Source: a virus
Reading direction: 5' to 3' (one strand)
IMG/VR virus record: IMGVR_UViG_3300029267_003762
Coordinates: 1 to 64,000 of that record
Length of the DNA: 64,000 nt
Shown here in pieces: positions 4,052 to 9,023 of the stretch. Under the pieces are notes generated by a model, which worked only from the letters and a program-made list of their open reading frames with translations, made no database searches and was not told where the DNA came from. A program made the position numbers and the translations under genes. Position 1 is the first letter of the stretch, and the number at the start of each line of letters is the position of its first letter.

Positions 4052-4411
4052 GGGGGTGACTTGGTTTCGACGTGGATGTCGAAGCGTCTTCTGCGTGCAG
4101 GCAGAGGCACCGGAACTGCCTTGACCAAACTGGTGCAGCGTAGTTGCCAACGACAACAACGCACTCGCCGCCGTCGCTTGATGGTGGCCGTCGACGGGCG
4201 AGGTGTCTCGCGTAGCCCTGAGGCGTCAACCACTCGAGGCTGAGCCCTACCGGTGGTCTCCTGACGGACCTGAAGAAGGGCGAGATTCATTGGGAGATGA
4301 CTGGCTGGAAAGACAGCCGAACCCCGCTGGGAGGGTAGACCAGCTACGCACGTGAACGAGGAAGCCGTGTAGCTTTCGCGGACCGCAGTTCGATTCTGCG
4401 CACCTCCACCA
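4052..4411 (+). ncRNA. ssrA: tmRNA, tag peptide (A)ANDNNALAAVA
   Basis: 5' GGGGGTGAC..GGTTTCGAC; 3' T-arm CGCAG-TTCGATT-CTGCG and CACCTCC-ACCA; G3-U wobble in the acceptor stem; tag ORF 4146-4181. Confidence 0.95.
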
Positions 4412-4424
4412 ATAGAAAGGGCAC

Positions 4425-4907
4425 ATGATGGAGTACAACGAGGTTGTACCGCTGTACGCGGACAAGTTCTTCGCTCGTGTGGGCTCTCCTACTTCGACAG
4501 GGTGCCGAGAGTGGCAAGCCGGACTGGACAAGGACGGTTACGGCCACTTTCAGTTTCGGCACGAAGGCAAGAAGTACAAGGTTCGAGCTCATCGAGCGGC
4601 CTACATGTTGGCCGGCAACTGGCTGCCTCCGGGCGCCATTCTCCGACATACCTGCGACAATCCTGCGTGCGTGAACCCTGAGCACCTTCTGTGGGGTACA
4701 CACGCTGACAACGTTCAAGACTGCGTGAGTCGGGGAAGGAACGCGTTTGGGGAAGGTAACGGCAGGCATGTCATGTGTGACGACGAGGTGTTGGAGCTTC
4801 GAGCTTCTGCCTCTTCTTTCATCCATGAGCAAGCGCACAAGTACGGTGTCGATGAGGCGGCCATACGCGCTGCGTTAGCCCAGCGTACTTGGACCCATGT
4901 GCCTTGA
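4425..4907 (+). CDS. HNH homing endonuclease
   Basis: CREW..GYG..RAHR..Y, LRHTCDNPACVNPEHL..GT..DN..D. Confidence 0.9.
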   Translation: MMEYNEVVPLYADKFFARVGSPTSTGCREWQAGLDKDGYGHFQFRHEGKKYKVRAHRAAYMLAGNWLPPGAILRHTCDNPACVNPEHLLWGTHADNVQDCVSRGRNAFGEGNGRHVMCDDEVLELRASASSFIHEQAHKYGVDEAAIRAALAQRTWTHVP

Positions 4908-5354: not shown

Positions 5355-5446
5355 CTGGGTACCTGGGTCCCCCTCCGTCGACGGAGGACAGGCCCGGGGT
5401 CGGAGGGATGGGCTCCTACTCAAGCCCGTGATGATGCTGCATGCGG

Positions 5447-5512
5447 ACCTGGGTCGCTCAATGGTAGGGTACGTGGGGACACGGTATGCGGGTTCGACTC
5501 CCGTCCCATCTC
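5447..5512 (+). pseudogene. degenerate tRNA-like element
   Basis: D-arm GCTCAATGGTAGGGT and T-arm GCGGG-TTCGACT-CCCGT intact; anticodon arm reduced to CGTG-GGGA-CACG; acceptor stem poorly paired. Confidence 0.5.
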
Positions 5513-5617: not shown

Positions 5618-5809
5618 ATGAAAGCTCGAGCAGTAGAGGTGGTGATCACGGTGCTGTGCTTGGTGGCCGCCGGCGCGGTCGCCTACTTCATGCTTCGGCC
5701 TGGTCCATGTGACGGCGTGAAGTGCCCCGAGGGCACCTACCCCATGGAGCAAGGCGCCGGACTGTTCACCTCGAGGTGCTCGTGCATCGGGCATCCGAAG
5801 GATCCGTAG
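5618..5809 (+). CDS. small Cys-rich membrane-anchored protein
   Basis: N-terminal hydrophobic helix, then several Cys; stop overlaps the next tRNA. Confidence 0.4.
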   Translation: MKARAVEVVITVLCLVAAGAVAYFMLRPGPCDGVKCPEGTYPMEQGAGLFTSRCSCIGHPKDP

Positions 5810-5873
5810 CTCAATTGGTGAGAGCCCCCGGCTCATAACCGGGCTGTTGGCGGTTCGAACCCGCCCGGATCTA
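5800..5873 (+). tRNA. tRNA with CAU anticodon (Ile2-like or elongator Met)
   Basis: GGATCCG/CGGATCT acceptor; GCTC/GAGC D-stem; CCCGG-CTCATAA-CCGGG; GGCGG-TTCGAAC-CCGCC. Confidence 0.9.
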
Positions 5874-5875
5874 CT

Positions 5876-6302
5876 GAGTTCTGTCAGGAGGTAGGCCTAG
5901 AAGCAGCCATCCTTCAAAGAGTCGCCAATGGCAGCAGCCGGAGTACCAGCGATGGACCGCCGGCCCGAGAGGCTTCGGCCTCGAAGCGTCCCACCAGACG
6001 TTTGCACCACCAGGTTAGTCCCAGGTGGGAGTCTTAGAGCTCATTGGGGAATGTGGGCGTAGAGCCATCGGGAAGCGAATGTGGGAGGTAAACCGCGTCA
6101 GCCTTTTCAAAGCCTGGTAACAGGTGGAGTTCCTGAGTCCTGACGTGGGGGAAGTACCATCAGTAGCACGGCCGGTTTTGCCCGCACGGACGAGAGGAAC
6201 TGCGGGTTTGACTTGAAGGGATCAGAATGAGCCCTGTGCCCCTTCGGGGATGACCGGTACAGCCCTAAGAGCGTTTGGCGTAGCAGCACACTGTCAGAAC
6301 TC
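5876..6302 (+). ncRNA. large structured RNA with a 23S rRNA L11-binding-domain copy and a sarcin-ricin-loop-like hairpin
   Basis: Closing helix GAGTTCTGTCAG (5876-5887)/CTGTCAGAACTC (6291-6302); CAGGAGGTAGGCCTAGAAGCAGCCATCCTTCAAAGAGT...GCGTAGCAGCACACTG; hairpin CCCGCA-CGGACGAGAGGAAC-TGCGGG at 6181-6206. Confidence 0.8.
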
Positions 6303-6310
6303 GCAACTCA

Positions 6311-6389
6311 GGGACGGCGGCATGGTGTCTGGGGAGACCCCAGGCCGGCCCGCTCGGGGGTTCATGAAACACCGCCGTCCTCTCTTTTT
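6311..6389 (+). terminator. hairpin plus U-tract ending the RNA-gene cluster
   Basis: GGGACGGCGG.../CCGCCGTCCT followed by CTCTTTTT. Confidence 0.45.
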
Positions 6390-6407
6390 AGCCGCCAGGA
6401 GCAGAAG

Positions 6408-6776
6408 ATGCGTTTGAAAACAAAGCTGAAGAAGATCTTGAGCACCCGTCTCACCGACGTGACGACGCGCGCGGCCAAGCGACTTCCGACCCGCATGCTC
6501 GAGGGCATCGTGTGGGCCGGCTACTATGTGCCGCGCACGCTCAAGCTGCCCATCGTCGGGTCGCTGCACACCGCCGCGTTCTTCGAGTACGGAGATCGGC
6601 TCGAGTCAGAGTCCCCCCTGCCGGCTGGGCGCAAGAGCGCGTACGAGCGCAAGACCTCGAATCAGGCTGCGGGGTGCAGGGGCGTCAAAGGCCGGACCAC
6701 GGTCATCGAGATGAGCGAGCCCTTGGAGAGCTACCCGATCCCGCGACATCGCCCGGCTACGGAGATCGACGCATGA
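6408..6776 (+). CDS. hypothetical basic protein
   Basis: AGGAG RBS; ATGA overlap with the next gene. Confidence 0.55.
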   Translation: MRLKTKLKKILSTRLTDVTTRAAKRLPTRMLEGIVWAGYYVPRTLKLPIVGSLHTAAFFEYGDRLESESPLPAGRKSAYERKTSNQAAGCRGVKGRTTVIEMSEPLESYPIPRHRPATEIDA

Positions 6777-7814: not shown

Positions 7815-9023
7815 ATGGGTCGCTACTTCCCCAACCGAACCACTGAGATTCTGCAGGCCAGCGTCATCAACATCGACATGGTCCAGTGGACCGTGGACGT
7901 GTACTCCAAGAAGGTGGGTCGGTGGTTCCCGAATGTGCAGGTCGGCAACATGTACTTGCACCACGCCGCCGGCGAGGGCGTCTACGCCGTGCCGGACCTG
8001 GGCGCCACGTGCATGATCTGCCTACCCACGGACCTGTCTCCGCCCTTCATCCTGTCGTACGTCGCGCCGCCCGAGGTGATCAGCGGCGACGAGGTGGACA
8101 ACCCCGACGAGGAGCTGGCCGAGGAGCTGGCCAAGGACGGCGATGCGCTGGACCAGGCCGACAGCTCCTCGAGGACGCGTCCTCTCGGCTTCACGTTCGG
8201 GTTGCGGCGTGGGCGCGCCAAGCCGGGCGACATCGTCATGCGGGGCAGGGACGGCAACTTCGTCATCCTGCACCGAGGCGGGGTGCTCCAGCTCGGCGCC
8301 AGCGAACTCGCTCAGCGCATCTATCTGCCCCTGCGCAACCTCATCATGGACATGGCCGAGCGTTACCGCATGACGACGGCTGCCGGCACCATCCGTTGGG
8401 GGATGCAGGAGCTCGACTACGAGAAGCGTGAGACCGAATGGATGCAGACGCTTCGCGTGTTCGCCGATGACGCCTACGCGGACCTTCGGATCGTTTGCGG
8501 GCACGTGAACAACCCCGTGCGCCTGCCCGAGGGGGACGACGACAAGGACATCCTCGACCAGATGCAGTTTGCCGTGAACGCCCCGGTCGTCTACGAGGTC
8601 ACGCTGCTGCCGGGGGGCAAAGACAGCGGCTTCAACGCTGAGAGCGGCGAGGTCTACAAGAAGAGCTACAACCAGATGAAGCTCCAGTGGAAGTTCGACC
8701 GTGACGGCAAGGCGTACGGAAGGTTCGATGGTGACGCGTTCCTGAGCTGTCAGAAGAACCTGTTCGTGCGCGTCAAAGGGAACCTGGACATTCAGTCCAA
8801 GGGCGTGGTCAATCTGACGGGCGACGGCAATGCGACGCTCGGGGGCAAGGGCACCACCAAGGTCAAGGGGCAGGAAGTCATCTTGGCCGATGGGGCCTTG
8901 GGCGTGGCGCGGATGGCCGACCAGGTTGCAATCGTCCTGCCCCCTAGCCTGGCGGGGCAGGCGGGGCTGCCTGTGCTGTACGGATCGATCATCACCTCGA
9001 GCGCCAAGGTCAAGGTGCCCTGA
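7815..9023 (+). CDS. probable baseplate spike / gpV-Gp138-like protein
   Basis: N-terminal OB-like region (VPDLGATCMI); C-terminal Gly-rich beta repeats; GVARMADQV...GSIITSSAKVK tip. Confidence 0.6.
   Translation: MGRYFPNRTTEILQASVINIDMVQWTVDVYSKKVGRWFPNVQVGNMYLHHAAGEGVYAVPDLGATCMICLPTDLSPPFILSYVAPPEVISGDEVDNPDEELAEELAKDGDALDQADSSSRTRPLGFTFGLRRGRAKPGDIVMRGRDGNFVILHRGGVLQLGASELAQRIYLPLRNLIMDMAERYRMTTAAGTIRWGMQELDYEKRETEWMQTLRVFADDAYADLRIVCGHVNNPVRLPEGDDDKDILDQMQFAVNAPVVYEVTLLPGGKDSGFNAESGEVYKKSYNQMKLQWKFDRDGKAYGRFDGDAFLSCQKNLFVRVKGNLDIQSKGVVNLTGDGNATLGGKGTTKVKGQEVILADGALGVARMADQVAIVLPPSLAGQAGLPVLYGSIITSSAKVKVP

Follow-up and report, generated by a model that had tools for sequence, protein, structure and literature searches.

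The locus and its RNA

The stretch of DNA analysed here, hereafter the window, comprises 64,000 nucleotides of a 92-kb record of an uncultured virus that is about 50% complete. It contains a tmRNA gene (4052-4411) followed by three tRNA genes and, as the last member of the same-strand cluster, an RNA of 427 nt (5877-6302). This RNA begins directly behind a tRNA-Met (CAT) gene and is closed on itself by a stem, P1 (Table 1), in which the pairs covary (UA8 CG6 GC6 AU3 at alignment columns 6-610). Its two ends are a copy of the uL11-binding GTPase-associated centre (GAC) of 23S rRNA, split at the position corresponding to E. coli 1090/1091 by an insertion of about 355 nt, and they include an H43 loop with the sequence CUAGAAGCA. 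The insertion, which separates H43 from H44, is based on the stems P2 and P3, and P2 is paired in 100% of the aligned sequences (GC14 UA9 CG6 AU3). Towards its 3' side lies a three-way junction made of Pz, Pw and the hairpin that is the main subject of this study. This hairpin resembles the sarcin-ricin loop (SRL) of 23S rRNA. No further pieces of rRNA, beyond H43, H44 and the SRL, were found in the insertion. A reading of the whole element as an intron or ribozyme was set aside, given that it has no match in Rfam and that P1 closes the RNA.

Table 1. Positions of the RNA elements and their flanks in the window
Feature	Positions	Strand	Remarks
tRNA-Met (CAT) gene	5800-5874	+	3' end 2 nt before the start of the RNA
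P1 closing stem, 5' strand	5877-5887	+	extends the H42-like stem; pairs with 6291-6302; covarying pairs
H42 tip, H43 and junction copy	5885-5920	+	31/36 identical to E. coli 23S 1053-1088
P1 core, H43 and H44 pairs (RNAalifold mapping)	5881-5887/6291-6297; 5889-5896/5906-5913; 6278-6279/6286-6287
P2, 5' strand	5923-5925	+	pairs with 6271-6273
P3, 5' strand	5928-5931	+	pairs with 6065-6068
P4, 5' strand	6069-6072	+	pairs with 6263-6266; encloses the 3' domain with the hairpin
GNRA hairpin	6112-6125	+	loop GUAA 6117-6120; conserved; every pair covaries; directly before the mask
Mask (anti-SRL) strand AGUUCCU	6128-6134	+	pairs with AGGAACU 6195-6201
Pz, 5' strand	6170-6177	+	pairs with 6252-6259; e.g. 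UA14 CG11 AU4; GC17 AU13
SRL-type hairpin	6180-6207	+	S2 stem 6180-6186/6201-6207; GAGA 6192-6195; 5' internal strand decayed
Pw hairpin	6212-6248	+	stem 6212-6215/6245-6248; third arm of the junction
3' strands of Pz, P4 and P2	6252-6273	+	6252-6259, 6263-6266 and 6271-6273; includes the conserved CCCUAAGAG motif
H44 copy and H42 3' strand, then P1 3' strand	6278-6302	+	6278-6293 corresponds to E. coli 1091-1106, 13/16 identical
Branched G+C-rich hairpin, then UCUCUUUUU	6310-6390	+	terminator-like by eye and by folding

The terminator-like element downstream of the RNA was not reported by a simple terminator scan. No gene for L11 or for a translational GTPase was found in the window's record, of which about 50% is represented, and any protein partner of the RNA would therefore be supplied by the host.

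Several other features of the cluster were observed. The tmRNA encodes the tag ANDNNALAAVA, and immediately behind it comes an ORF with an HNH endonuclease domain (4425-4907), which suggests that the tRNA/tmRNA cluster harbours a mobile or homing element. A weak tRNA-Sec-like match (16 bits) lies between tRNA genes at 5428-5512, and a 63-codon ORF (5618-5809), whose predicted product has a hydrophobic N-terminus and several cysteines, lies between two tRNA-Met genes.

A family of GAC-copy RNAs

A pattern describing H43 was recovered from at least 80 viral contigs, and 78 of 80 match 23S rRNA only over about positions 1046/1059-1088. Most of them have an H44-like GCGUAAUAGC located 70-360 nt downstream and a covarying closing stem, and the insertions in these family members are unrelated in sequence to that of the window. 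The features that define the family, namely P1, a 5' copy of H43, a 3' copy of H44 and an insertion at 1090/1091, are all found in the window. A subfamily additionally shares with the window a 3' motif, CCCnnnGAGnnUUnGGCGU...AGCACAC, and its long members carry the hairpin at the equivalent position. The elements characteristic of these long forms (P2, P3, P4, the GNRA hairpin, Pz, Pw and the motif CCCnnnGAGnnUUnGGCGU) are present and paired in the window, together with the GCCC...GGGU hairpin in the Pz/Pw junction and its upstream mask strand. A survey of 185,579 prokaryote genomes yielded the 3' motif only once, on a 14-kb contig of a metagenome-assembled genome.

The genomic setting recurs across the family: in 28 of the 40 loci scanned the RNA lies within or beside tRNA genes, often between two on the same strand and once within a run of 44. 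The GAC part is also matched in cultured jumbo phages, including GAP32, CBB, Serratia BF, the Erwinia pEa_SNUABM phages, Xanthomonas XbC2 and Pseudomonas pf16, among others. Unannotated short forms are located at ~289.5 kb in GAP32, ~285.7 kb in CBB, ~285.2 kb in Serratia BF and ~29.6 kb in pf16. An SRL module was not seen in the cultured phages by blastn, a search that is weak for elements of 36 nt. The window RNA had no blastn match at E 1e-5 in the cultured-phage collection, and its H43 part alone matched at E 1. Rfam 15 contained no match to the window RNA even at E<=10, and none to eight relatives, except for a sub-threshold LSU match on the GAC part of one short form. Full-text literature searches likewise retrieved no description of this RNA. 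Thus, the family is undescribed in Rfam 15 and in the searchable papers.

The phylogenetic spread of the RNA was also approached through a 402-aa protein encoded downstream of it (7815-9023). No near relatives of this protein were found in viral contigs, and a profile search with it recovered 58 loci at 27-42% identity. The RNA was found near none of these 58 loci, five complete relatives do not have it, and no close relative of the window phage with the RNA emerged from these searches. The occurrence of relatives at the protein level that have no RNA indicates that the distribution of the RNA is patchy. With regard to the same protein, a 99%-identical copy (P0001) is present on another contig of 170,766 nt, and a viral record (G001) with a 38% match to it has no copy of the RNA. 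The contig of the window RNA's closest relative (L168) has a match to Y RNA-like (YrlA) RNA at 512-644, which scores 42.9 bits against a cut-off of 69 and adjoins tRNA genes.

The hairpin in the window

The segment 6180-6207 reads G-CCCGCA-CGGA-C-GAGA-G-GAAC-UGCGGG-U, and in this respect the preliminary description of an SRL-like hairpin at this position proved correct base for base. The stem has 7 bp, with a G.U pair (G6180-U6207) followed by Watson-Crick pairing of CCCGCA (6181-6186) with UGCGGG (6201-6206), and the GNRA loop is closed by C6191-G6196, both as in the SRL. The strands flanking the loop, CGGA (6187-6190) and GAAC (6197-6200), form a purine-rich, symmetric 4x4 internal loop. Nine of nine bases at 6190-6198 are identical to E. 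coli 23S 2657-2665. Considered alone, this 9-base match does not exceed what chance would give: the window contains two occurrences of ACGAGAGGA, where 1.14 are expected, and shuffles of the surrounding 352-nt insertion usually have a 9-11-mer in common with 23S rRNA.

In isolation, the hairpin folds at -12.0 kcal/mol. In the fold of the whole RNA its pairing probability is approximately zero and imposing it carries a penalty of 7.4 kcal/mol, since AGGAACU (6195-6201) is engaged with the upstream AGUUCCU (6128-6134), and hence the loop is not displayed free of other pairings as it is in the SRL. Judged by minimum-free-energy folding alone, the hairpin would be dismissed; covariation shows that both the stem and the competing helix formed with the upstream strand are genuine.

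The SRL-type module in the relatives

A first regular-expression screen of 79 family members, based on an exact H43 pattern that was biased to short forms, found an SRL-like word in the window alone. Likewise, H43 followed by ACGAGAGGA at the spacing of the window was detected in no other record among viral or metagenome contigs. The idea that the hairpin is unique to the window was, nevertheless, overturned by patterns derived from the subfamily's own conserved motifs. A hairpin-based pattern recovered 17 viral and 93 metagenome loci, 80 of the latter being listed, and after the removal of chance matches an alignment (A2) of 43 distinct hairpins was obtained. Its consensus is GCCCnCAC-AGUAC-GAGA-GGAAC-UGnGGGU, in which the conservation of GCCC, GGRA and GGGUYUGA is partly ascertainment, these positions having been fixed in the pattern along with a stem filter. 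Among the 43 copies: 1) the 5' strand is AGUAC in 21, AUUAC in 11, UGUAC in 4 and something else in 7; 2) the loop is GAGA in 27, with GAAA, GUGA, AAGA, CAGA, AAGC or CAGC in the remaining 16; 3) the 3' strand is GGAAC in 24, GGAAA in 15, GGAAU in 3 and GGGAC in 1; 4) the bulged-G position is G in 27 and U in 11, and 30 have a G at the start of the loop; and 5) UAC.A, although formally unpaired, persists in about 38-41. Relatives carry a near-exact SRL, AGUACGAGAGGAAC, in the same RNA as the copy of the GAC. An example is L161, whose hairpin reads GCCCGCAC-AGUACGAGAGGAAC-AGCGGGU. The hairpins of L170 and L173 include ...AGUACGAGAGGAAA... and ...UAGUACGAGAGGGAC..., respectively, and L158, L162 and L163 have the hairpin on quite different stems.

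A second sample, of 79 distinct complete RNAs, was selected on the H43 junction alone, regardless of the hairpin. The SRL-type hairpin is present in 17 of the 17 RNAs with an insertion of at least 291 nt and in 0 of the 62 with shorter ones. Its stems in this sample are diverse (GCUGCG/CGCAGU, GCUACGG/CCGUAGU, CCUCGC/GCGAGG and GUUACAU/AUGUAAU) and in A2 the stem covaries, one position having AU20 GC16 CG5 UA2. Absence or variability of the hairpin in homologous RNAs had been set in advance as the observation that would tell against it, and the long forms do not bear this out. When a profile of the long forms was compared with E. coli 23S and 5S rRNA, the best match was H43 (E 3.7e-10) and the second was the SRL (E 0.41). 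Taken with the SRL consensus in the 43 relatives, this upholds the earlier view that the hairpin was not captured by chance. Conversely, the majority of family members have no SRL module, and the 6 of 43 copies in which it has decayed (see below) retain the RNA, which implies that SRL mimicry is dispensable. The decayed state of the window's copy, the two opposite types of mask described next, and the link between insertion length and the module are new.

The mask strand and the overall structure

The strand that competes with the hairpin in the window is a general feature of the module. In A2, a strand with the sequence (A)GUUCCUC, which we term the mask, lies about 50-60 nt upstream, just after the GNRA hairpin, and pairs with the loop sequence GAGGAAC(U). 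In this helix 90% of the alignment cells are paired, against 39-50% in slid controls, and the pair at A2 columns 45-146 covaries (GC18 UA14 AU2 GU1). All 17 long forms of the H43-junction sample have a mask. In 11 it is directed against the 3' half of the loop and in 6 (L173, L341, L158, L163, L162 and L320) against the 5' half, where the target is YUAGUACG and compensating changes are seen. A conserved and covarying upstream strand, which the preliminary description did not include, thus pairs with one half of the loop, and the latter is more than simply displayed.

For 32 full-length long forms, RNAalifold predicted 48 pairs, of which 37 show compensatory changes. With the mask helix added, 54 pairs are 93.1% paired, compared to 36-49% in slid controls, and 39 pairs are changed on both sides. 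None of 500 shuffles came up to the observed values. The mask helix crosses the stem of the hairpin, forming a pseudoknot, and cannot coexist with the closing C-G pair or with the S-turn of the SRL. As a consequence, the native fold may never resemble the SRL. The copy of the SRL is thus hidden or held in a pseudoknot. At the same time, the loop conforms to the SRL consensus regardless of the half that is masked, which suggests that the SRL sequence is selected beyond the needs of the pseudoknot and that masking is itself under selection. Either the SRL would be exposed conditionally, or the masked form would be what is recognised.

With respect to the tertiary structure, the GNRA loop of the hairpin at 6112-6125 has the variants GUAA, GCAA, GCGA and GUGA in the family, and the stem of the SRL-type hairpin contains invariant CCC/GGG pairs (6181-6183/6204-6206). 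Tandem C-G pairs are a known docking site for loops of the GUAA type, and the two elements would fit a predicted tetraloop-receptor contact.

Derived decay of the window's copy

The S-turn of the SRL requires AGUA opposite GAA, with the G bulged out and the 5' strand one base longer than its partner, and this bulged-G turn is the feature needed by alpha-sarcin and EF-G. Among the relatives, the sequence required for it is present in the copies with AGUAC (21) and UGUAC (4), while the 11 with AUUAC do not have the G. In the window it is absent: CGGA stands opposite GAAC, and in place of the five bases C/U-A-G-U-A of the relatives and the SRL there are four. The preliminary description recorded this difference as a change of AGUA to CGGA, a wording that conceals the shortening from five bases to four that turns the region into a 4x4 loop. 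Owing to the symmetry of this loop, which is one base shorter, the bulged-G turn cannot form as it does in the SRL. With neither the AGUA strand nor the unequal strand lengths left, the window's copy is unlikely to work as an SRL decoy. It retains the stem, the GAGA loop with its C-G closing pair, the GGAAC strand and the pairing with the mask.

The usual 5' strand has been lost in 6 of the 43 copies (those of the window, L168, L171, L189, L219 and L277). Five of them are devoid of UAC, and L277 retains CUAC and is one base short. All six retain the stem, the GGAA strand and the pairing with the mask. In a FastTree phylogeny with midpoint rooting, computed with the hairpin columns excluded and read with branch supports not inspected, the window's RNA groups beside L168 and then L277, among canonical copies, and L171 and L189 are placed elsewhere, next to canonical copies. 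This placement implies at least three independent losses of the 5' strand, and on this tree the decay in the window is a derived loss. The window's hairpin is very probably a decayed homologue of the conserved SRL-type module. In the window, the module most likely survives for an architectural role in the pseudoknot, true mimicry of the SRL having been lost or changed.

Functional interpretation

The GAC and the SRL are the two rRNA elements touched by translational GTPases. The interpretation that we favour, with a probability of roughly 55%, is that the window's hairpin is a copy of the SRL-type module of a phage non-coding RNA family and that the RNA imitates the docking site of these GTPases off the ribosome. 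The RNA at 5877-6302 is transcribed together with the phage tRNA genes and, according to this scenario, would be cut out of the tRNA transcript. Pairing of its two ends through P1 rebuilds the uL11-binding GAC, comprised of the H42 tip, H43 and H44, and the hairpin forms an arm of the three-way junction within the insertion. Its loop has the true SRL sequence, AGUAC-GAGA-GGAAC, in most long relatives, and one half of the loop is paired to the upstream mask. The GAC ends would be expected to bind uL11, and the RNA might also bind some protein that recognises the GAC and the SRL together. Candidates for such a partner are translation factors, as well as toxins or defence effectors directed against the combined site. 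As to the SRL part, it would either be fixed in the pseudoknot or become exposed only under certain conditions, and the RNA might thereby serve as a decoy or sponge for the factor or for the site-targeting toxin.

The individual components of this proposal deserve different degrees of credence. A role of the family as a decoy or sponge that imitates the factor site and works by binding is a tentative suggestion, to which we would give somewhat less than even odds. The more elaborate version, wherein a free-standing replica of the GAC and SRL with an anti-SRL switch captures translational GTPases or defence toxins during infection, and the lineage of the window gave up the SRL half, is rather doubtful in its entirety. 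It is the RNA family that is remarkable; the window's copy is worn.

A less likely possibility is that only architecture matters. The SRL-like sequence would then be a relic of an old capture of rRNA, with selection keeping the S1/S2 pseudoknot and the junction, and no SRL look-alike role would exist in either the family or the window. Covariation of both the stem and the mask helix, exclusion of the SRL apical fold by the latter, the recurrent decay of the 5' half (at least three times independently) in copies that keep stem and mask, and the variability seen at the bulged G and at the first base of the loop are all in line with such a history. However, it would predict that loop and mask drift jointly, whereas two groups with masks against opposite halves both keep the loop at the SRL consensus. 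It also leaves unexplained the retention of the formally unpaired UAC.A in nearly all copies and the fact that the copy of the SRL accompanies one of the GAC, its functional partner on the ribosome.

We consider it improbable that the window's hairpin is itself a working decoy for SRL-directed toxins, such as ribosome-inactivating proteins and sarcin-like or VapC20-type nucleases. It lacks the AGUA strand and the bulged G, the mask is predicted to occupy its 3' half, and no toxin gene or defence context is tied to the RNA. These points outweigh, in our estimate, the retention of a C-G-closed GAGA tetraloop on a stable stem, even though ricin-type N-glycosidases accept minimal GAGA hairpins and phage tRNA clusters are a usual home of counter-measures against attacks on the translation machinery.

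An rRNA-mimicking autoregulatory leader or attenuator of the ORF at 6408-6776 is very improbable: ribosomal-protein leaders do mimic rRNA, and downstream of the RNA there are a terminator-like hairpin and a ribosome-binding site, but in relatives the RNA is flanked by tRNA genes and further tRNAs come right after it, an L11 gene is missing from the record, and the RNA is made a closed unit of its own by P1. Chance, in the form of an ordinary GNRA hairpin in a structured RNA that happens to share 9-11 bases with the SRL, has hardly any probability left. In its favour are the unremarkable frequency of the 9-mer in the window, the shuffles and the want of a second record with H43 and ACGAGAGGA at the same spacing, but this reading is already contradicted by homologous hairpins in 43 relatives that are closer to the SRL than the window's copy and by the rank of the SRL as second-best match of the family profile in 23S rRNA.

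Comparison with known systems and significance

The closest counterpart of the hairpin is the SRL of 23S rRNA (helix 95, E. coli 2646-2674), with which it shares the Watson-Crick stem, the C-G-closed GAGA and the GGAAC 3' strand. Unlike the SRL, the window's hairpin belongs to a phage RNA of about 430 nt and is devoid of AGUA and the extra 5' base. Family members differ from one another at the bulged-G position and at the first base of the loop, both of which are invariant in real SRLs, and the phage loop is half-paired with a mask, which the ribosomal SRL never is. The ends of the RNA resemble the GAC (E. coli 1051-1108, the uL11/thiostrepton site) at the level of identity given in Table 1, and the window's copy even has the non-canonical U.U at 1060/1078 and the A at 1061. 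The phage version differs in being split by the insertion at 1090/1091 and in the variation of the H43 and H44 loops in some relatives.

Non-ribosomal RNAs that copy a protein-binding site of rRNA have precedents in the leaders of ribosomal-protein operons, such as those of L10 and L1. These leaders are short and act in cis on their own operon, in contrast to the phage RNA, which is free-standing, resides in a tRNA cluster with no L11 gene, and copies two distant rRNA sites together. Isolated SRL and GAC fragments reportedly each bind EF-G in vitro, as described in the 'ribosome in pieces' study of Munishkin and Wool from 1997. Such fragments are hence recognisable off the ribosome, as we propose for the phage RNA; those oligonucleotides were synthetic, whereas the phage RNA is natural, joins both pieces and adds a mask. 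Among phages, GOLLD and ROOL are also large structured non-coding RNAs that often lie beside tRNA genes. They are distinguished from the RNA described here in that no Rfam family matches the window RNA or the eight relatives, and to our knowledge neither of them copies rRNA sites. We know of no natural RNA outside the ribosome that reproduces the SRL, still less the SRL and the GAC together.

Should the family bind factors or toxins off the ribosome, it would constitute a new viral means to manipulate or protect translation, and nature would also have provided a minimal model of the factor-binding site. A natural mutant is represented by the window's copy, in which the AGUA strand is gone and the stem, loop and mask stay, and which thereby separates the parts indispensable for the RNA from those that belong only to mimicry of the SRL. 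The masks directed at opposite halves in different relatives point to regulated display, and the short forms in cultured jumbo phages (GAP32, CBB, Serratia BF and pf16) bring the family within the reach of genetics.

The GAC part of the family shows a variation of its own. Some long-form relatives (L183, L185, L188, L189 and L190) have a shorter H43 loop (e.g. GGG-CUGAAA-CCC), which is accompanied by a change in the H44 loop (e.g. GGCUGAGAAGC), so that the tertiary fold of the GAC seems to have diverged jointly in the two loops. Long forms with altered H43 and H44 loops keep a canonical SRL hairpin.
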